A stretch of 32,191 nucleotides of DNA from a virus (Duplodnaviria; Caudoviricetes), in the IMG/VR virus record IMGVR_UViG_3300010005_000043, positions 1 to 32,191 of that record. One strand, given 5' to 3'. The notes below the pieces were generated by a model that saw only the letters and a program-made list of their open reading frames with translations, made no database searches and was not told where the DNA came from. The position numbers and the translations under genes were made by a program. Positions 1 through 10,482 of this stretch are shown piece by piece. The stretch's first letter is position 1. Each line of letters begins with the position of its first letter.

Positions 1-1194
1 ATGGGGAGCCATACTCGTAACGTACTGACAGTAAAATCAATCGCGGCCAGTAAATCCAAGAAGCTCCGCGACGGCGGCGGCCTTTGGCTGGTAACGAAAG
101 GCGATGCGCGCTATTGGGTTTTTGATTTTACCCACAATGGAAAGCGCCGGCAACTCGGGCTCGGGCCGCTGCTGAGCGTCGGTCTGGCTGAAGCAAGGGC
201 GAGGGCCGATGAAGCGCGCAAGCTCGTCCGACGCGGGGTCGATCCGATCGCCCAACGCCAAGCTGCCGAGGTCAAAGCGATGACGTTCGGCGAGTATGCC
301 GACTCTTTCGTTGATGCTGCGGTTAAGGCTGGCCGCTGGCGAGGGGCGAAGACCGAAGCAAGGTGGCGAAACCTCCTAGAAAATCATGCTGCGGGTCTCC
401 GACGGAAGGCGCTGAACGCGATCGGCGTTCCCGATGTGCTTGAGGTGCTGAGGACGGTGTGGGGAGTCCGGCAGGAAACCGCGGAAAAGCTGAGGGAAGC
501 TATCGAACGTGTGCTGGATGCGGCTAAAGTGGAAGGGCACCGGAGCGGCGAAAACCCGGCCGCCTGGCGCGGTCAGTTGGAGCACGTGCTTCACAAACCC
601 AATATTTTAACCGCAAAGAAGCACCACTCCGCGATGCCTCACGCTGAAGTTGCGGGCTTTATGAAGAAGTTGCGGAAGGTTCCAACGGTCGAGGCGGAAG
701 CGCTTCAGTTCTGCATTCTGACCGCCACCAGGAGTGGGGAGGTGAGGGGCGCAGTCTGGTCGGAGTTTGACCTTCAAAAGAAGATATGGGTAGTCCCGGC
801 TGTTCGAACAAAGCCGGGCAAAGAGCACAGAGTTCCCCTCTCTCAACAAGCCGTTACGCTTCTAAAGCAGATGGTGAAAAAGTCGGTGAATGACTTTGTT
901 TTTCCTAGCGTGCGTGACGGGAAAATGCTGGCCGACGCAACGCTTGGGACAGTGCTTAAATCCGTCGATACTAGCGGTTATACCGTGCATGGATTTCGAA
1001 GCGCATTCAGGGATTGGTCTACGGAAGTTGCCCACGCGCCCCGGGAGATTGCCGAGGCCGCACTGGCACATGCCGTCGGCGACGCAGTGGAGAGGAGCTA
1101 TGCCCGGTCTGATGCCTTGGAACGGAGAAGGGCTCTGATGCAGGCGTGGGCGGATTACATTGTAAGCGGGTCTTTGACAAATGCGTCAAGCTAA
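1..1194 (+). CDS. int: P4-like tyrosine recombinase/integrase
   Basis: N-terminal arm-binding domain (LRDGGGLWL...RRQLGLG...LAEARARA); catalytic ATRSGE, HGFR, LAH, RSY motifs. Confidence 0.95.
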   Translation: MGSHTRNVLTVKSIAASKSKKLRDGGGLWLVTKGDARYWVFDFTHNGKRRQLGLGPLLSVGLAEARARADEARKLVRRGVDPIAQRQAAEVKAMTFGEYADSFVDAAVKAGRWRGAKTEARWRNLLENHAAGLRRKALNAIGVPDVLEVLRTVWGVRQETAEKLREAIERVLDAAKVEGHRSGENPAAWRGQLEHVLHKPNILTAKKHHSAMPHAEVAGFMKKLRKVPTVEAEALQFCILTATRSGEVRGAVWSEFDLQKKIWVVPAVRTKPGKEHRVPLSQQAVTLLKQMVKKSVNDFVFPSVRDGKMLADATLGTVLKSVDTSGYTVHGFRSAFRDWSTEVAHAPREIAEAALAHAVGDAVERSYARSDALERRRALMQAWADYIVSGSLTNASS

Positions 1195-2268: not shown

Positions 2269-2531
2269 TGGGCCACCCTTCAATCATTGCAGTCAGACCG
2301 GCGCCTCCTGGCGCTGGTCGGGCCATTGCGTTCGTCGATGTCCAACTCAATGGACTGCGGCTGTTCAATTTGAAGCTGGTCGATGGCCCCTCGGGGCGGC
2401 GGATTCATGCGCCCTCCGCGTACGGCTCGTCTGTTGCGACCTTCACGCCTGACCTCGCGGCTACACTGGTCCGCCTCGCCAACCAATCCATCGGAGATAT
2501 CGCCCGCCATGACCGCAGCCACGCAGCCTAG
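2268..2531 (+). CDS. Small SpoVG-like nucleic-acid-binding protein (putative)
   Basis: AIAFVDVQLNGLRLFNLKLVDGPSGRRIHAPS resembles the SpoVG beta-strand pattern; coupled to neighbours. Confidence 0.55.
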   Translation: MGHPSIIAVRPAPPGAGRAIAFVDVQLNGLRLFNLKLVDGPSGRRIHAPSAYGSSVATFTPDLAATLVRLANQSIGDIARHDRSHAA

Positions 2532-4737
2532 CCCCTCGATCCTCTTCGATGAGCCAGCGATCCGAGAGCACGTGCAAATGTTGCACGAGCTTGCTAGTGG
2601 CATTGATGGCGTTCTCGTCGTCTCGGTTTTCAACGCCGCCCTGCCGACAGACAAGGGTATAATCACACACCACCGCGTCGGCGACGTTGACGGAATGGTC
2701 GACGCCATAATGGCGCACGCTAGTACGGACCACATGAACGTCTACTCTGGCCTCCAGGTCATGCGTTCCGGCTTGGGGCGCGGCAAGCGCGGAACTGAGT
2801 CGGATATCGTCGCGGTGCTCGGCCTCGTGGCCGACATGGATGGAGACACGGGAAAAGCGGCCGGCGAACTGCCAGTCGAGCCCAATTACACGATTGAGAC
2901 GAGCCCGGGGAACGGGCAGCCCGCTTGGTTGTTTGATCGCGCCTTGCCACCGGCAGAAGCGAGGCCGCTTGCAGCAGCTCTCCGTCGCGCCACAGGTAGC
3001 GATGCGGGGACCGCTGATATTTGTCACGTCTGGCGCGTCAGTGGCACTCTAAACTGGCCTGGCGCCACTAAGCTCGCCCGCGGCCGCTCGCCAGACCCGG
3101 CACCGGTCACGATTGCCGCGGCATGGGATGGGTCGTTCACCAGCGTTGAAGACCTCCGAACCGCGCTTGAGCCGTGGGCTGCGGTTCCAGCGGCTGCGGA
3201 GCCAGTGGCACTGGGCGAGCTTCCAACGGTCGACTGCATCGAGGTCAGCCCCGTCGCTGCGGAAATGCTGTTGGCGGATGATGTTGAAAAGCGCTCCGAG
3301 CACGCGGCTCGCGTGGTCGAGCAGTTGGGTTTCGATGGGCTTACAGCGGAGCAGGCCTGCGCAGTGTTCCTTTCGGCAACTGGCAACTGGTTCGCGCGAT
3401 ACGAAGGAAAGGACCCGGTTGCCGACTTTACGCGGCTCTGGGGAAAGTATGGCGCTCACCATGCCGAGGAGCGGGCGCATGCAACCAACGTGGCGGAAAT
3501 CTTCTCGGGCAGTCGTGCTAAGACCCCTCCACCCGCGGCCAACGACAACAAACCCACGCCCGCTCTGTCCATTTTCGATTGGACGGCAGACAGGTTCGTT
3601 GGCGCCGCGCCTCCGGTCGAATACCTCGTCGACGGCGTCATCCCGATGGGAGTCCCAGGAATGGTGTCCGCCGCTGGTGACACCGGTAAGTCGTACGCGT
3701 TGCTGGAACTGCACCGAAGGATCGCGTTCGGTTCGACCAAGCTCGCCTCACCCATCTTCGGGGGCAGGGTGGTCGCCGAGGGTACGTCTGTGATGATCAC
3801 CAGCGAGGATGACGCAAACGAGGTTCATCGGCGCGTTGCAGCACTCGACGACAGGGAGCAACGCTACACGGCCGCAGGCAAGCGCATGATCATCGTGCCG
3901 TTGCCATCTGCCGGTGGTGCGCGCGCGTTCTGGCGAGAGGATCGAAAGAGGGGCCTGCTGGAGACCGACGATTTCAGGAGCATCTGCGACCAACTCCTTA
4001 GTATCTCCGATCTTCGGCTGGTGACATTCGACCCTTTGGCCTCGTTTGCCCATCTTCCGCTGAACGAGGACCCGACTGCGGGCCAATTTGTTTGCTCGTC
4101 GTTGGCGCGGCTGGCGTCGGAAACGAAGGCGACGGTGTTGGTTGCCCACCACATGCGTAAGTCCAAGGCCCCGATCGAAACGCTTTCAGACGCCCGCGAG
4201 GCGATCCGCGGCAGTACGGCGCTGGTTGACGGGTTACGGTTGGCGTATGCCATGTGGCCGGCTGATGAGGCCCGTGCGAAGCGGATCTGCAAGTCGTTGG
4301 GCATAGGTCACGAGCCCAACAAGATCGTCCTCGGCGGCGTGGTCAAGGCGAATGGCGCGGCGCGGCGGATCATGTCCACATACGCTCGAAACGAAAGTGG
4401 CCTGCTGGTCGACCGCACGGCTGGGCTGGGAGCGGCGGCTCCCGCACAAGGTGACCTTCGTGCGGCACTAGTGATCTCAGTCGAGGCCGCAGCGGCTGCT
4501 GGCACGCCCTTTAGTAAGACGGGTTCTAGTGGGCTTTTCGAGCTGCGAGAGCGTCTTCCAGAGGAGCTTCGGCGACTAGGCAAAGCCCGCCTTGTTGCCC
4601 TCGCTACTGATGCGCTCGAACGCGGGGAGATTGTTCGCGTAGCGGCTCGCGGCGAAAAAACCGCAAAATGGCTCGACGCTCCGACCGGCATGTTTGCCGC
4701 TGGGATTGGTACTTTCACGGCTGGAATGCCGCGCTGA
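2509..4737 (+). CDS. Primase-helicase replication protein (RepB-like primase N-terminus, RepA/AAA_25 helicase C-terminus)
   Basis: ATG after GGAG; VADMD and IETSPGN primase motifs; Walker A AGDTGKS, Walker B VTFDPL, AHHMRK and IRGSTAL RepA motifs. Confidence 0.85.
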   Translation: MTAATQPSPSILFDEPAIREHVQMLHELASGIDGVLVVSVFNAALPTDKGIITHHRVGDVDGMVDAIMAHASTDHMNVYSGLQVMRSGLGRGKRGTESDIVAVLGLVADMDGDTGKAAGELPVEPNYTIETSPGNGQPAWLFDRALPPAEARPLAAALRRATGSDAGTADICHVWRVSGTLNWPGATKLARGRSPDPAPVTIAAAWDGSFTSVEDLRTALEPWAAVPAAAEPVALGELPTVDCIEVSPVAAEMLLADDVEKRSEHAARVVEQLGFDGLTAEQACAVFLSATGNWFARYEGKDPVADFTRLWGKYGAHHAEERAHATNVAEIFSGSRAKTPPPAANDNKPTPALSIFDWTADRFVGAAPPVEYLVDGVIPMGVPGMVSAAGDTGKSYALLELHRRIAFGSTKLASPIFGGRVVAEGTSVMITSEDDANEVHRRVAALDDREQRYTAAGKRMIIVPLPSAGGARAFWREDRKRGLLETDDFRSICDQLLSISDLRLVTFDPLASFAHLPLNEDPTAGQFVCSSLARLASETKATVLVAHHMRKSKAPIETLSDAREAIRGSTALVDGLRLAYAMWPADEARAKRICKSLGIGHEPNKIVLGGVVKANGAARRIMSTYARNESGLLVDRTAGLGAAAPAQGDLRAALVISVEAAAAAGTPFSKTGSSGLFELRERLPEELRRLGKARLVALATDALERGEIVRVAARGEKTAKWLDAPTGMFAAGIGTFTAGMPR

Positions 4738-5614: not shown

Positions 5615-5835
5615 ACTGGTCGCCTAGGGAACTTCGATTGACGCGCGTCCAGGCGGAGTATTTGCGGCGTCACGATGCGTCGGTGCATCAAGGAATTAAC
5701 GACAGGACGGAATTAATTCTGTCCGCTCGTCGGATGTTTATGTGGAGGCACGGCGGTGACGGGGAGTTTTTCTTAGTTCCGTCTCCGAAAGGCGAAGCAG
5801 CATTGGCGAAATTTTACGCGAGGAGAAAACGATGA
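5611..5835 (+). CDS. Hypothetical small basic protein (possible winged-helix)
   Basis: ATGA overlaps at both ends; LVPSPKGEAAL resembles a wHTH wing end. Confidence 0.6.
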   Translation: MNWSPRELRLTRVQAEYLRRHDASVHQGINDRTELILSARRMFMWRHGGDGEFFLVPSPKGEAALAKFYARRKR

Positions 5836-6977
5836 CGGAACGCACCTCTGAGGAACACCGCGCCGAAGTTGAAGTCTGGCGGGCAACGTCGCCCAAGAAC
5901 GATCATGATATATTCGGACGGAAGTTGAAGTCCGAAAAGCCGAGACATCGCAGCCTTGCCAATCTCTCCGCACTGCTCGCCATGCGCAGCCGCCCGATCG
6001 GGGTGGCGGAAGGTGTGCCGGGGGAGCTAGCGCCAGTCATATCCTCGAACTGGCGGATCGCCCCTGCGAATGACAATCGATCACCGGACGAAGGCTTCGG
6101 TGGCGAGGCCGCGGTCGAATATGTACCGTCAATCGAGGCGATTGAAGCTGTCCTCTCCGGTCTCACTGTAAGGTGCCGCCCTGAGCCCATGATGCTCGCT
6201 GGTGGCCGACATGAGGGCCGCCGAGCGAGTAGGACAATAGAGGCCATTCCGGTCGACGGCGACGTTGAATTCGGCACCCACATCGATGATGAAGGCAAGG
6301 CCCACCGTGTAATCGTTCGCATCGGCAAGCTTCGTTTCAGCGATGGAACACAGACGGAGCGCGGCCAGAAACTCTTCGTCGATAAAGTCGTGGAAGCCGA
6401 CATTGAGATGCCGGTCGGCGCGATGCTGGGCTGCCGGGAGAAGGCAACTCGAGAGAAGGGGGCGGAAGCGGACGTCTCGTCGACCAACGCGCACTATCGA
6501 TGGATGGTCACCGGCCGGGTTGCCACGCCTCCAAAGTTGCGCCCCAGGAAAAGCGAGCGGCGCTCAATCTCAAACGCGGAAGCTGCAAATATGCTCGCTG
6601 ATGCCTACGCGAACACTCCGGTCATGCCAAAGGTTAAGCGCTACCCCGACGGTTTCCCGGCCAGCCCCACCAACTTGCGGCAGCTTTTCATCGGAGGCCG
6701 CAAGGGCAAAAGCGGGGAAAGCGGATCGATGGCCTGGGAGGATATTTTCACAGAGAAGGAGAACCGGGAGATATTCCACCGTGGGCTCGATGCAATGCAA
6801 GACGAGCACGTCCGCGTGCTTACCGAGGCGATGACTGCGAAGAGCCTTAGCGAAATCGGTACTGCGCGCGGCTTCAAGGGTCGGCACGCGATCGACGCTG
6901 GCCGGCGTTTGCTTGTCTCGGCAAACGACAACTTCGAGAAAGCGATGGATTTGGCGAGGCATGCTGCCGAGGGCTAG
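5832..6977 (+). CDS. Hypothetical protein, candidate late-gene regulator with C-terminal HTH-like region
   Basis: AGGAG RBS; last early gene before the late region; AKSLSEIGTARGF resembles a sigma region-4-type HTH. Confidence 0.6.
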   Translation: MTERTSEEHRAEVEVWRATSPKNDHDIFGRKLKSEKPRHRSLANLSALLAMRSRPIGVAEGVPGELAPVISSNWRIAPANDNRSPDEGFGGEAAVEYVPSIEAIEAVLSGLTVRCRPEPMMLAGGRHEGRRASRTIEAIPVDGDVEFGTHIDDEGKAHRVIVRIGKLRFSDGTQTERGQKLFVDKVVEADIEMPVGAMLGCREKATREKGAEADVSSTNAHYRWMVTGRVATPPKLRPRKSERRSISNAEAANMLADAYANTPVMPKVKRYPDGFPASPTNLRQLFIGGRKGKSGESGSMAWEDIFTEKENREIFHRGLDAMQDEHVRVLTEAMTAKSLSEIGTARGFKGRHAIDAGRRLLVSANDNFEKAMDLARHAAEG

Positions 6978-7005
6978 GGAAGTTTTTTGCACCTCAACAC
7001 CCTTT

Positions 7006-7655
7006 AAGGTGAAGGGGTAGGCAACCGCGTTGCTGCCCCACACCTTTCCGGGCGCACATACTGTTGCGACGGAGGCTCGGCCAGTGATGAGTCGGGCCTA
7101 ACTACCCACCGACGGTTGCGAGCTTAGGCCGCGATATTCGGGGCGAAAGCCTGTCGGTTTTCGCGAAATACGAAGGTGGCCGAGCCAGTGATGGTTTCGT
7201 GATGCGAACGGGTCATATAGGCACGCAAGTGCTCCGACCTGCACCTTCGTTCATTATTGGCAAGGCAGGACTTTGTACGCCCTGAGAAGGTCCGCTCCAG
7301 CTACGGCGCGCGCTGGCCGTTCCTTGCTGTCGACAAGAGGATCAACGCGGCAGTCTCGCCCCAACGGCGTAGCAACGGCGCCTCTTGTCCTTCTATTGCC
7401 CAATCTACGGCTAGATGCCAGCGGCTTGGACGCGGCATTCCGTTGGGTTTTATGAGCATCCTGGTCCTCTGACGGTTTGCTTGCGACGGGCATAGTACCG
7501 TGGTTGGTAGGCGATTATGCCCAACATCCTGAAACAACAGGAGGGCGCTGCAGACGTGCAGTGGCTGGATGCAGGACCATGAACCATCTCAGGCGCGCTC
7601 ATGGTTCACCTTTCCCCCATTGCCCTTGCGCGCCTCCTCCGCAGCATGGGCGATC
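7006..7655 (+). ncRNA. Long structured non-coding region (tandem hairpin and multi-branch modules)
   Basis: Consecutive self-complementary modules with GNRA loops (GTGA x2, GAAA, GCAA); no convincing ORF. Confidence 0.6.
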
Positions 7656-7657
7656 GT

Positions 7658-7698
7658 GCGGCGGCCTCCCTACGGGTTGAGGTCGCCGCTTTTGTTTT
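7658..7698 (+). terminator. Intrinsic terminator
   Basis: GCGGCGGCCTC...GAGGTCGCCGC stem followed by TTTTGTTTT. Confidence 0.75.
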
Positions 7699-7702
7699 CA
7701 GT

Positions 7703-7777
7703 GCACGTCTAGCCTAGTGGTAAGGCAGCGGTCTCCAAAACCGCCAAGGTTGGTTCGATTCCAGCGGCGTTTCGCCA
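7703..7777 (+). tRNA. tRNA-Trp (CCA)-like gene with imperfect acceptor stem
   Basis: D arm GCCT-AGTGGTA-AGGC, anticodon arm GCGGT-CTCCAAA-ACCGC, T arm GTTGG-TTCGATT-CCAGC, encoded 3' CCA. Confidence 0.7.
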
Positions 7778-7790
7778 TTCACGGTGATCC

Positions 7791-8102
7791 ATGGCCAGAG
7801 CAGACCTTCGCTCTGCCGAAGCCGACGCCTATCGCCGCCTGTACAAGACGGCACGATGGCGCCGGATACGAGAGCACCAGTTAGCGCTTCACCCCCTGTG
7901 TGAGTGGTGCCTGGAGCGGGAAGAGGTCACGGAAGCCACTGAGGTCCACCACTCTGATGGTGGCCACAAAGGCAACCTCGATAAGTTTTGGTATGGCCCA
8001 TTCATCAGCACGTGCAAGCCTTGCCACGCATCAAGAGGGCAGCTTGAGGACAACGGCAAGACGGTCGTGGTCTATGGTCCAGATGGATGGCCGATCGGTT
8101 GA
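7791..8102 (+). CDS. HNH endonuclease (terminase-associated)
   Basis: PLCEWC...EVHH...CKPCH motifs; directly upstream of terS. Confidence 0.9.
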   Translation: MARADLRSAEADAYRRLYKTARWRRIREHQLALHPLCEWCLEREEVTEATEVHHSDGGHKGNLDKFWYGPFISTCKPCHASRGQLEDNGKTVVVYGPDGWPIG

Positions 8103-8198: not shown

Positions 8199-8585
8199 AT
8201 GGCAAAGCCACGCACGCCGAAGGCAAAAGCTGCGGTAACGGGGCAAGCCGCGGTTCGCAGGAAAAAATTCGAGGAGCGCCATGAGCCGGTTGTCGCTGAC
8301 GCTGTCGGCGAGCCGTTCGAGTGGTTGAATGAATTCGCGCAGAAAGCATGGCGCGAGATTGCATCTGAGGTGCCCTGGCTCAACTCGAGCCACCGAGGTC
8401 ATCTGGCGATCGCCGCGAACATCCGCGGGCGAATGATGAAGGGTGAAGACGTTGGCGTGCAAGCCATGAACCTTCTGCGTCAGTGCTACGGTCAAATGGG
8501 GGCGACACCGGCCGATGCCAGCAAGGCTGGAGCAAAACCGGATGGCGAGCGCAAAGACCCGGCCGACGAGTTCTTCGACGAGTAA
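8199..8585 (+). CDS. terS: Terminase small subunit
   Basis: Position; basic N-terminus, AWREI...W and GATPADASK motif typical of P27-like TerS. Confidence 0.8.
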   Translation: MAKPRTPKAKAAVTGQAAVRRKKFEERHEPVVADAVGEPFEWLNEFAQKAWREIASEVPWLNSSHRGHLAIAANIRGRMMKGEDVGVQAMNLLRQCYGQMGATPADASKAGAKPDGERKDPADEFFDE

Positions 8586-10482
8586 CATCCCTTCGCACTT
8601 TGACCCAGTATACCCAACTGGTCCGGTTGATGAATACGCGGAAAAGGTAATCAAGGGCGACATCGTTGCCGGACCACATGTGCGGAACGCATGCCGTAGG
8701 CATCGTGACGACCGTCTCAACGGTCCAGCGCGCGGCGTCCACTGGGACCCTGCGGCCGCAGATCGCGTTTTGCGATTCTTCCCGGCGGTGCTGCGCCTCA
8801 ATGGCGGCCAGTTCGAAGGGCGGCCATTCCACCCGCACCTGTCGCAGCAGTTCAAGATCGGCTCCATCTTCGGATGGAAGCGCGTGGAATCGGATGGCGC
8901 AATCCTGCGACGCTTTCGACGCGCCTACATTGAAGAAGGTAAGGGCAACGGAAAGTCGCCATTGGCGGCCGGCATCGGTCACTATTGCCTGACATCGGAC
9001 GGCGAGGCGGCGGCTGAAATCTATGCGGCTGCGGCCAACAAGGACCAGGCTTTCGTTCTGTTTCGCGATGCCGTCGCGATGTACGAGCAGTCTCCTGCTC
9101 TCAAGTCCAAGCTGACCCCGTCGGGTGGCAACCCAGTCTGGAACCTCTCGTATCTGAAAAAGAGGTCGTTTTTCCGGCCTATTTCGCGCGAAGGAGCCCA
9201 CAGCGGCCCACGCCCTTACATCGCGCTCTGCGATGAAATCCACGAGCATCCGGACGGCAAGGTCATCGAGATGCTTGAGCGCGGTTTCAAGTTTCGTCGC
9301 CAGCCTCTTTTGTTCATGATCACGAATTCCGGTTCGGACAGGAACAGCATCTGTTGGGACGAGCATCAGCACGCGGTCAAGGTGGCGGCGGGAACGCCAA
9401 CGCCAGACGACGATTTCACCTATGTTGGTGAGGTTATTGACGACACGACTTTCTCGTACGTGTGCGCGCTCGACAAGGATGACGATCCGTTTACGGATCC
9501 AACTTGCTGGCAGAAGGCAAACCCACTTTTCGGGGTGACGCTGAAGCACGATTATCTGGCTGGCGTCGTCAACCAGGCGAAGGACATTCCTTCGAAGCGT
9601 AACGGCATTCTTCGCCTGCACTTTTGCGTGTGGACGGAGGCCGACACTTCGTGGATTCCGCGGCCACTGATCGAAAAGGTCATGGTCGACTTCGATCCTT
9701 ATGAGGAGCACAAGGGCAAGCCGATCAACGCGGCTGGCCTGGACTTGTCTGGCGCGAAGGATTTGACGGCTGCGGCTTTCGTTGTCGAAACGGGCACAAA
9801 GCGCATTACACGCGAGGACGGAACGGAGGCGGACCTACCGACCTACGACGCCTGGATTGAGGCGTGGACGCCTCGCGATAGCATGGACGAGCGTACCAAG
9901 CAGGATCACCTGCCGTACCGGCTGTGGTTCGAACAGGGCTACGTGCATGCGCCAGAAGGCGCTCGAATTCGCTACGATCATGTCGCCGCGATGTTCGCCA
10001 AGCTCAACACTGAGCATGGCATTAGCGTGCTAGCCTACGACAAGTACGTCTACGACAAGTTCGCGGACGAGCTAGACGGCTATGGCGTCGACATCAACAG
10101 CGTTGCGCACCCGCAAGGCGGCAAGAAGCGTGCAAAGCCCGACGAAAAGAAGGTTCAGGCGGCAAAAGATGCCGGCGAACCACCTCCGTTGGGCTTGTGG
10201 ATGCCTGGAAGCATGGCTGCGCTGGAAACGCTGATTCTCGAAGAGCGTATCCGACTTCGGGAAAGCCCGGTCCTGATGGGGGCCATCATGGCCGCTCACG
10301 TCGAGACCGACCCACTTATGGGTAATCAGTGGCTATCGAAGCTCAAGTCGACGCAGAAAATCGACCCGGTTATTGCGCTGTGCATGGCGGTGGGTGCTGC
10401 AGTCGATGGCGCGCCTGCTTCACAAGGTCAGTCCTTCTGGGAAGTCCTCGATCCGTCCGCTGACTATTCGCAAGCCGCCTAG
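8542..10482 (+). CDS. terL: Terminase large subunit
   Basis: Walker A GKGNGKS, Walker B ALCDEIH, nuclease GLDLS...DLTA and KIDPVIA; start at ATG 8542 after GGAG is approximate. Confidence 0.95.
   Translation: MASAKTRPTSSSTSNIPSHFDPVYPTGPVDEYAEKVIKGDIVAGPHVRNACRRHRDDRLNGPARGVHWDPAAADRVLRFFPAVLRLNGGQFEGRPFHPHLSQQFKIGSIFGWKRVESDGAILRRFRRAYIEEGKGNGKSPLAAGIGHYCLTSDGEAAAEIYAAAANKDQAFVLFRDAVAMYEQSPALKSKLTPSGGNPVWNLSYLKKRSFFRPISREGAHSGPRPYIALCDEIHEHPDGKVIEMLERGFKFRRQPLLFMITNSGSDRNSICWDEHQHAVKVAAGTPTPDDDFTYVGEVIDDTTFSYVCALDKDDDPFTDPTCWQKANPLFGVTLKHDYLAGVVNQAKDIPSKRNGILRLHFCVWTEADTSWIPRPLIEKVMVDFDPYEEHKGKPINAAGLDLSGAKDLTAAAFVVETGTKRITREDGTEADLPTYDAWIEAWTPRDSMDERTKQDHLPYRLWFEQGYVHAPEGARIRYDHVAAMFAKLNTEHGISVLAYDKYVYDKFADELDGYGVDINSVAHPQGGKKRAKPDEKKVQAAKDAGEPPPLGLWMPGSMAALETLILEERIRLRESPVLMGAIMAAHVETDPLMGNQWLSKLKSTQKIDPVIALCMAVGAAVDGAPASQGQSFWEVLDPSADYSQAA

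Follow-up and report, generated by a model that had tools for sequence, protein, structure and literature searches.

What lies in the 725 nucleotides (nt) between the gene for a 381-amino-acid (aa) protein and the tRNA-Trp gene that precedes the packaging genes of a provirus? The window, meaning the whole stretch of DNA analysed here, is an IMG/VR provirus record (IMGVR_UViG_3300010005_000043) of 32,191 bases, estimated to be 53% complete, most closely related to prophages of Shinella, Rhizobium, Mesorhizobium, and other Rhizobiales; the gap occupies positions 6978-7702 on its plus strand. A preliminary description, made from the sequence alone, had proposed an array of structured RNA modules and had left three interpretations side by side: one large non-coding RNA (ncRNA) resembling GOLLD or ROOL, an array of tRNA-like decoys, or a late antitermination leader. 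A structured RNA of the plus strand without an Rfam family stood up to our analysis, and the antitermination leader was the best-fitting of the three options; the large ncRNA and the decoys were not supported. We tentatively read the array, at somewhat less than an even chance, as a modular structured leader of the tRNA-HNH-terminase (late) operon, in which a terminator within the last element, G2, must be read through. Beyond the earlier description lie a cassette-like mosaic, the widely conserved terminal G2, and, immediately ahead of the array, a gene with a sigma-4-like domain and a promoter-like element.

The comparative set consisted of about 80 related loci, which were fetched via the HNH protein, DNA patterns, and genome searches and compared by blastn and nhmmer (L numbers denote these loci; L002 is phage 16-3, NC_011103, and L017 is a Rhizobium prophage). 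Four modules, A (7008-7106), D (7330-7396), F (7451-7575), and G2 (7613-7702), showed covariation well above controls. G-U pairs were frequent in the covarying helices, which points to RNA read from the plus strand; the earlier suggestion that the G-U pairs reflect selection on RNA is borne out in these four modules. The elements of the array are as follows.

7008-7106, plus strand: module A, three hairpins (7006-7046, about 7052-7071, and 7074-7098); it ends in UAACUA and opens the array in the group-1 relatives.
7103-7182, plus strand: module B, a pair of neighbouring hairpins, of which one has a GAAA loop.
7165-7254, plus strand: module B2, a closing stem CGAAGGTG/CACCTTCG around three small hairpins.
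7255-7329, plus strand: module C, a conserved sequence block with the closing stem GCAAGG/CCTTGC.
7330-7396, plus strand: module D, closed by a stem of 9 base pairs (bp), with an internal loop AUCAACGCGGCAGU...GCAACGGCGC that is conserved and an apical hairpin that varies.
7395-7451, plus strand: module E, a GCCCAA/TTGGGT stem-loop, near-invariant among copies.
7451-7575, plus strand: module F, a multi-hairpin domain of 125 nt with GCATCC/GGATGC as its closing stem.
7580-7608, plus strand: hairpin G1, TGAACCAT/ATGGTTCA, seen in minimum-free-energy folds.
7613-7702, plus strand: G2, consisting of the P1 hairpin (about 7617-7653) with a CCUCCUC loop and the GC-rich terminator-type hairpin P2 (7657-7689), followed by UUUUGUUUU.

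Rfam 15 has no counterpart of G2, which forms a new RNA family. A covariance model (R1) built on 24 copies gave 55 G2 matches in 73 sources. In an alignment of 53 distinct sequences fitted to that model, which favours the structure, 91.9% of the cells were paired compared with 79.3% after shuffling, and 18 of the 24 pairs had changed on both sides compared with 9.6 in the shuffled alignments; with an alignment made by MAFFT only, 8 of 16 pairs were compensatory. Slid controls, in which the partners were moved by 1-3 columns, reached at most 7 compensatory pairs and at most 51% pairing. One P1 pair, to give an example, had the composition UG 23, UA 15, and CG 13. The P1 stem has about 12 bp with a mismatch or bulge, and its loop is nearly always CCUCCUC followed by C or U, the core CUCCUC being present in about 50 of the 53 distinct copies. 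After a gap of about 4-7 nt follows P2, a GC-rich stem of 12-13 bp in which a CUCCC strand pairs with a GGUYGAG strand carrying a two-U bulge, and then UUUUGUUUU or a similar run. The features of an intrinsic terminator, a GC-rich stem and a U-run, are kept across the family. P2 occurs in two versions, with CUCCC as the 5' strand or with the strands swapped, often with an extra inserted hairpin; the duplex itself, beyond pairing alone, seems to be under selection. The comparison of the swapped strands covered the window (7657-7689) and copies in L041, L055, L060, L070, L074, and others.

The position of G2 is also conserved. Of 52 loci anchored on HNH, 36 contain it, in every case upstream of HNH and in the same orientation, and 11 of the 18 loci that had been found without HNH have an HNH homologue downstream of G2, on the same strand, within the sequence examined. 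G2 remained recognisable even where the HNH proteins had diverged to 27-45% identity. In a host-family sample, 7 of 151 genomes contained a copy. The copy of phage 16-3 (NC_011103 59,750-59,835; L002 2499-2584) lies inside the annotated coding sequence (CDS) p109, 12 nt before the HNH gene p110; this CDS (59553-59855; L002 2302-2604), which ends just inside p110, is probably not protein-coding. Tandem pairs of G2, a few hundred nt apart, were seen in L045 (1662-1744 and 2217-2299), L052 (2083-2168 and 2358-2451), and L075 (1228-1309 and 1484-1569).

For module A, a MAFFT alignment of 13 sequences, which omits L062, L048, L036, L006, and L079 (pattern-based extraction) and L012 (divergent), had 89.1% of its cells paired compared with 79.3% after shuffling; 11 of 26 pairs had changed on both sides, and the slid controls gave at most 5. 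Nine of the 13 sequences carry an extra hairpin in place of the GTGA loop. For module D (model R2; 10 sequences, 7 of them distinct), the values were 98.6% paired compared with 87.2% shuffled and 8 of 20 pairs compensatory, with at most 2 in the slid controls, and its folding z was -4.1. A pattern scan of metagenomes for module D returned 36 matches, of which model R2 scored 6 at 74 bits or more, the rest being chance or weak matches, and across 78 sources the model found one further weak match, in L085. Module F, with 5 sequences, showed 90.8% pairing compared with 83.5% shuffled and 13 of 42 compensatory pairs, the slid controls giving at most 4.

The remaining elements differ in how far relatives speak to them. 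Module B is 91% conserved in L005 and is also present in L085 and L077; it folds on the plus strand with a z of -2.2, and 3 of its 21 pairs are compensatory among 4 sequences. Module B2 folds with a z of -3.0, only 1 of 200 shuffles folding as well, and is without comparative support because no homologue was found in the roughly 80 related loci. Its 5' part (7171-7193) repeats part of hairpin 3 of module A (7067-7089) as a 23-nt direct repeat of 78% identity, so that the start of B2 looks like a partial duplicate of that hairpin; the sequence GCCAGTGATG, whose double occurrence had been pointed out before, lies inside this repeat. The arms 7074-7083 and 7177-7186 are perfectly complementary. 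Module C has homologues in L061, L074, L077, L057, L020, and L082, and its structure found no support in 6 sequences (z of -0.1, 1 of 15 pairs compensatory, and an unfavourable covariation term). Module E is 92-96% identical in L004, L057, L074, and L076, about 85% identical in L077 (within a longer match) and in L078/L086, and 92% identical in RHph_TM3_3_14B; because only 2 of its 19 pairs vary on both sides among 7 sequences, its structure is neither supported nor refuted. Hairpin G1 had no homologue in the related loci. The covariation check that had been proposed for gathered relatives succeeded in modules A, D, F, and G2 and left module C without support. The stems listed in the preliminary description do exist at their coordinates and recur in minimum-free-energy folds, including AAGGTG/CACCTT (7006-7046), the hairpin with the GTGA loop (7074-7098), CGAAGGTG/CACCTTCG (7171-7249), GCAAGG/CCTTGC (7260-7327), GACAAGAGG/CCTCTTGTC (7332-7389), GCCCAA/TTGGGT (7398-7448), and TGAACCAT/ATGGTTCA (7580-7608).

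Is the array then a unit? It consists of about nine modules of 55-125 nt with sharp borders, each conserved separately in different related prophages, and the borders of the conserved blocks coincide with the closing stems noted earlier. The blocks are distributed as follows.

7035-7104: conserved in L028, L070, L079, and L080.
7103-7182: conserved in L005, L077, and L085.
7255-7329: conserved in L061, L074, L077, and others.
7330-7396: conserved in L035/36, L073, L074, and L077.
7395-7451: conserved in L004, L057, L074, L076, L077, L078, and phage RHph_TM3_3_14B.
7451-7575: conserved in L008, L053, L070, and L078.
7609-7702: conserved in dozens of loci.

No relative has the whole region in common with the window, and the order and combination of the blocks vary. 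Module F precedes E in L078, the reverse of the order in the window; D is joined directly to G2 in L073, E abuts G2 in L074 and L076, and in some loci only about 135-240 nt separate the upstream gene from G2. In the group-1 relatives the two ends are conserved, module A at the 5' side and G2 at the 3' side. A DNA search with the whole region found 4 phage records (short matches only), 2 plasmid records with matches, and matches in 4 of 401 genomes at the order level and 10 of 400 at the family level; none of the phages, plasmids, and genomes searched keeps the complete array. The host genomes contained one to four module matches each, all in prophage contexts, and the modules are therefore not genome-wide repeat elements. 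We found no conserved promoter or terminator separating the modules and neither iteron-like repeats nor an origin in the array, and inverted repeats of 10-13 nt occur at an estimated chance level. A YUAUUGC or CAUUGCC-like motif opens modules C, E, and G2 (7255-7262, 7393-7400, and 7615-7622) and appears at junctions in L073, L074, L076, and L078; the YUAUUGC-type motif at the module starts may mark a place of RNA processing or a joint left by recombination.

The region 6978-7702 is non-coding. It contains no convincing open reading frame (ORF), its small ORFs had no Pfam and no PHROG match, and the periodicity of GC content by codon position is weak, unlike that of the flanking genes. The Rfam check that had been called for left the array without a family: at the gathering score, tRNA-Trp was the sole Rfam 15 match in the window, and at E values up to 10 the segment 6800-7900 gave the tRNA and two chance-level matches, Xoo2 (18.8 bits; gathering score 45) and uxuA (18 bits; gathering score 66.8). 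In 35 related loci, tRNAs and one ar15 passed the gathering score, none of them on G2 copies. The modules had been described as tRNA-sized multi-way junctions, a loose description, since none of them resembles a tRNA in the Rfam search.

Folding energy was less telling. The whole region gave z scores of -3.3 (plus strand) and -2.9 (minus strand) with 20 shuffles each, and in a second run a z of -5.4, the lowest of ten 725-nt segments, nine coding controls ranging from +1.0 to -4.4. Seven fixed 100-nt frames in the array had a mean z of -0.86 compared with -0.56 for 43 coding frames (Mann-Whitney p = 0.25). Frames aligned to the modules, which were picked after the stems were known, gave plus-strand z scores of -2.2 to -4.1 in 7 of 8 modules and -0.1 in module C; the minus strand folded more weakly in the same 7 frames, and in module C the relation was marginally reversed (-0.61 compared with -0.14). 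Folding beyond shuffled sequence, as it had been put, is thus seen modestly in the whole-region z and in the module frames, whereas fixed frames do not differ from coding DNA. Folding energy is suggestive and indecisive alone; the comparative data carry the case. A 162-nt contig of the X15 metatranscriptome is identical to 7314-7419 (the end of module C, all of D, and the start of E) and may be carried-over DNA; because its sequence differs upstream (downstream is adapter sequence), it derives from a related element.

The setting of the array in the window is given by the following features. The plus strand carries every recognisable gene of the window, including all from integrase to terminase.

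1-1194, plus strand: integrase, the first of the recognisable genes, followed by an excisionase-like ORF.
2383-4737, plus strand: primase/helicase-like ORF.
5832-6977, plus strand: the 381-aa upstream gene (phrog_36072, function unknown in PHROG).
6978-7702, plus strand: the non-coding array, a 725-nt gap between the 381-aa gene and tRNA-Trp.
7703-7773, plus strand: tRNA-Trp (CCA), found by ARAGORN and as Rfam RF00005 (49.2 bits); it starts 4 nt past the end of the G2 match.
7791-8102, plus strand: HNH endonuclease, the first gene of the packaging operon (phrog_2323, E 1.3e-20).
8199-8585, plus strand: terminase small subunit TerS, by PHROG match (phrog_83 and phrog_9 cover the TerS/TerL pair).
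8515-10482, plus strand: terminase large subunit TerL, by PHROG and by Pfam TerL_ATPase and TerL_nuclease.

The array thus sits between a conserved regulator-like 381-aa gene and HNH-TerS-TerL, all on the same strand. In 7 loci (the window, L003, L012, L031, L040, L066, and L068) a tRNA, of differing identity, begins 1-4 nt past the G2 match, and in 4 loci, 16-3 (L002), L020, L061, and L048, the HNH start codon lies about 9-12 nt past the U-run of G2. There is no room for a promoter after G2 in those loci, and expression of the tRNA or HNH therefore needs read-through of G2. Elsewhere, 150-1200 nt between G2 and HNH are taken up by tRNAs, other conserved blocks, or an ORF. In six relatives this is a lower-GC ORF of about 270-360 aa, as listed here.

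L071 2156-2968: inserted lower-GC ORF.
L059 2073-2981: inserted lower-GC ORF.
L013 2106-2981: inserted lower-GC ORF.
L062 2060-2995: inserted lower-GC ORF.
L060 2108-2992: inserted lower-GC ORF.
L056 1886-2968: inserted lower-GC ORF.

On the other side of the array, the upstream ORF falls into a single BLASTP cluster, a diverse family, in 30 of 32 loci, and the gene order upstream family, non-coding region with G2, (tRNAs), HNH, TerS, TerL holds in the window. The p107 protein of phage 16-3, annotated as sigma-like, matches members of the cluster at 2.5e-76 and 2e-28; a direct BLASTP comparison of the 381-aa protein with p107 was not significant, and the link runs via intermediates. An AlphaFold model of the 381-aa protein had an overall pLDDT of 58.6 and was confident at residues 308-380. 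All 50 VIA-align rows listed for this AF2 model match its residues 299-381 with sigma region 4 (Z 6.5-8.8), and the top Foldseek rows are also sigma-4 (E 0.4-1, TM up to 0.76 on the target); these are middling scores. The C-terminal 80 or so residues may accordingly be regarded as sigma-factor region-4-like, a lead and not a proof from a predicted model, and the protein is likely to be a late transcription regulator. Region 4 of sigma factors is the domain that binds the -35 promoter element.

Directly behind this gene lies a stretch with features of a promoter.

6978-7011, plus strand: promoter-like stretch, GGAAGTT, a variable spacer, and then TTTAAGGTGAAGGGG; the promoter role is putative.

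In the window and L003, GGAAG and GTGAAGGG stand at identical spacing while the spacer between them has diverged. In 14 aligned group-2 loci, TCC(G/A)GT and CGTAT blocks are invariant, separated by a gap-free variable spacer and followed by TGAAGGG, the sequence that opens module A in the group-1 loci, including the window. Blocks of fixed spacing with a free spacer form a pattern that would be expected of a promoter. In the group-2 loci an intrinsic terminator follows about 25-50 nt past the blocks (tool-confirmed in L034 and L004), then a closed module, then G2, a layout that looks like a promoter with a promoter-proximal terminator. In L034 (2174-2258), L004 (1568-1652), and 12 further loci, the blocks come right after the stop codon of the regulator; behind them stand TGAAGGG, a small hairpin, and then an intrinsic terminator whose stem shows compensatory changes.

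Considering these data, we propose that transcription would start at the promoter-like element just after the sigma-4-like gene, near 7008-7012, pass through the modules, and mostly stop at the U-run of G2 unless a phage factor or condition permits read-through. Termination at G2 would set free some 690 nt of structured RNA, whole or in processed pieces, ending in an anti-Shine-Dalgarno (anti-SD)-type hairpin, whereas read-through would yield the tRNA, cut out by RNase P, together with the packaging genes. The variable middle modules would be exchangeable RNA cargo in the leader, a reading drawn from the differences in module order and content between loci and from the ar15 that L017 carries there. 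Within the same model, the array may alternatively be a 3' extension of the preceding operon. We favour this leader with its gate because it is the simplest account that covers the position, the strand, the tight packing, and the terminator. The near-invariant CCUCCUC loop, most of the anti-SD motif of the alphaproteobacterial cuckoo sRNAs, suggests base pairing as a further mode of action of the released RNA.

Several results weigh against this leader. In many relatives the 150-1200 nt between G2 and HNH make a separate late promoter possible. A terminator scan of the window did not list P2, because the UU bulge falls outside the simple stem rule of the scan. Scans for the sigma-70 consensus gave no promoter at 6978-7011 and none supporting the conserved blocks. 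The 381-aa protein had no Pfam, NCBIfam, or PDB sequence match, known antiterminators included, and its fold matches, with Z below 9, could reflect a common helical arrangement. Folding energy fails to separate the array from coding DNA. In RNA libraries from wastewater samples, four runs had matches to the window, only in short, unstranded contigs without transcript ends that are possibly DNA; the parts of the window that they leave uncovered carry no meaning. A gate alone, finally, leaves unexplained the near-invariant P1 loop CCUCCUC and the P2 strands CUCCC and GGUYGAG, which would fit a base-pairing or protein-binding role.

The proposed leader can be set beside the lambdoid late leader (PR', 6S RNA, tR'). 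As there, a regulator-like gene lies directly upstream on the strand of the late genes, a promoter-like element at short range precedes a predicted intrinsic terminator that stands ahead of the late genes, and the group-2 blocks with a terminator within about 25-50 nt have a layout of the PR'-tR' type. The differences are that the upstream protein falls outside the known Q families and has a sigma-4-like domain, that the leader is about 690 nt long compared with about 70-200 nt, that it is built of exchangeable structured modules, and that a tRNA stands behind the terminator; promoter activity and antitermination are here putative. In the Stx-phage form of PR'-tR', the terminated leader is reported to be the regulatory small RNA (sRNA) StxS (PMC7547250). 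Like the leaders with nut or put sites, the array places small hairpin elements upstream of a predicted terminator that would have to be passed; in G2, by contrast, the conserved hairpin lies only about 4-7 nt before the terminator stem. Lambda nut/boxB and HK022 put are cis-acting antitermination RNAs, small hairpins in phage leaders upstream of terminators. An antitermination activity of module A or P1 is speculation.

Of the other explanations, one survives well enough to be a real competitor, although we consider it only possible. It holds that the array is a polycistronic sRNA precursor, cut by RNase E (and RNase P at the tRNA) into trans-acting RNAs, that G2 is an Hfq-type sRNA whose CCUCCUC loop pairs with the SD regions of host mRNAs, and that the late genes have their own control. 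G2 does end in a hairpin plus a U-run, as Hfq-binding sRNAs do, and the YUAUUGC motif recurs at module starts. A full-length Rfam ar15, an AbcR-type alphaproteobacterial sRNA (116 bits), lies at 1630-1740 of L017, about 460 nt upstream of its G2; known trans-acting sRNAs therefore do lodge in the region between regulator and HNH. Set against this are the absence of conserved promoters or terminators between the modules and the lack of an identified target: GAGGAGG, with which the CCUCCUC loop would pair, occurs nowhere on the plus strand of the window and twice on the minus strand, below chance expectation. Moreover, with the HNH start about 10 nt past G2 in 4 loci, G2 is therefore no purely independent unit there.

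The nearest known counterparts for such a function are the cuckoo RNAs (RSs0680/CcsR and S. meliloti C14, also alpha-r14) of Rhizobiales and Rhodobacterales. According to PMC4615179, they have 2-4 adjacent hairpins with CCUCCUCCC in every loop, and the Rhodobacter RSs0680a-d form an array that shares its transcript with an upstream ORF and has a terminator-like hairpin behind it. The G2 loop likewise bears a CCUCCUC anti-SD-type motif, its CUCCUC core being most of CCUCCUCCC, and G2 has two adjacent, covariation-supported hairpins, in agreement with the number in cuckoo RNAs. It differs in having a single motif loop (CCUCCUC then U or C), the P2 loop lacking the motif and the CUCCC of P2 being paired in the stem to GGUYGAG, and in being prophage-borne, tied to HNH-terminase genes, and without a matching Rfam family. 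As CCUCCUCCC is not present in each of its hairpin loops, G2 was not classed as a cuckoo RNA. The sRNA precursor is compatible with the leader and differs from it in what selection acts on; the two readings overlap, and all others are far less probable.

An improbable reading gives the conserved blocks a role at the DNA level, as accessory sites for packaging or cos, as an origin, or as recombination joints, or takes them for neutral debris of the mosaic; the hairpins would then be incidental. The array does adjoin packaging genes, its mosaic break-points suggest frequent recombination, and folding energy is indecisive. However, changes that preserve pairing were found in four modules, including G-U pairs, which are A-C mismatches on the other strand; iteron-like repeats are missing from the array; the cos site of 16-3 lies downstream of HNH, outside this region; and G2 outlasts a divergence of the HNH proteins to 27-45% identity.

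More unlikely still is one large ncRNA with a single three-dimensional architecture. Like GOLLD and ROOL, the array is a highly structured RNA of several hundred nt, about 700 here, next to a prophage tRNA gene, and its ends, A and G2, are conserved in the group-1 relatives. Yet neither GOLLD nor ROOL nor any other Rfam covariance model matched it at E up to 10, and its domains have no fixed set or order: the modules are found separately and in other orders and combinations, the middle ones being absent, replaced, or reordered in relatives (F before E in L078, D next to G2 in L073, and only about 135-240 nt up to G2 in some).

A phage tRNA hotspot in which the modules would be tRNA-like decoys, or tRNA genes in decay, is barely credible, for although the neighbouring position in relatives holds tRNA genes of at least 7 identities and module E agrees at 14 of 17 bases with the T-arm and acceptor part of tRNA-Trp, RF00005 matched only the real tRNA in 6800-7900 at E up to 10, ARAGORN found one gene, about 5 pairs like the 8-mer seed of the module E match are estimated to arise by chance in 850 nt, and the covariation-supported structures are stem-loops or multi-hairpin domains, none a cloverleaf. 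In the T4 tRNA cluster, tRNA genes and small stable RNAs (species 1 and 2) are packed head to tail in one transcription unit. The window resembles it in packing a tRNA gene together with other small structured RNAs; phage and sequences are unrelated, and the T4 cluster is not the leader of a packaging operon.

The leader with its G2 gate may be part of a wider arrangement, a suggestion we consider no more than possible. The 16-3-type rhizobial prophages would keep an 'RNA cassette site' between the sigma-like gene and the packaging operon, bounded by two new conserved RNAs, module A on the 5' side and G2 on the 3' side, in which unrelated modules, known sRNAs (ar15), and tRNAs are swapped between phages and G2 serves as late gate and as a regulatory RNA released in lysogens. 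G2 would then combine a free anti-SD loop with a bulged SD/anti-SD-like duplex that survives a complete strand swap. The kinds of element are known (late leader or terminator RNAs of phages, anti-SD sRNAs, RNAs of tRNA regions); what is new is the cassette arrangement and G2. In the literature searched, subscription journals being outside its coverage, we found no description of an ncRNA in this position, and the terms sRNA, non-coding, and intergenic are absent from the rhizobiophage genome papers PMC10460002 and PMC12429752.

Phage ncRNA is poorly charted, and late-gene switching in rhizobiophages, including the long-studied 16-3, is nearly unexplored. The present data add at least four covariation-supported RNA motifs outside Rfam 15, one of which, G2, takes the same place ahead of the HNH-terminase genes in some 50 loci of prophages and phages. 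If the proposed arrangement is true, G2 would found a class of phage riboregulators of its own, its cargo being a modular array of 'RNA morons', and the cassette-like exchange of structured RNAs, sRNAs, and tRNAs in a leader would, if confirmed, be an RNA counterpart of the protein 'morons'.

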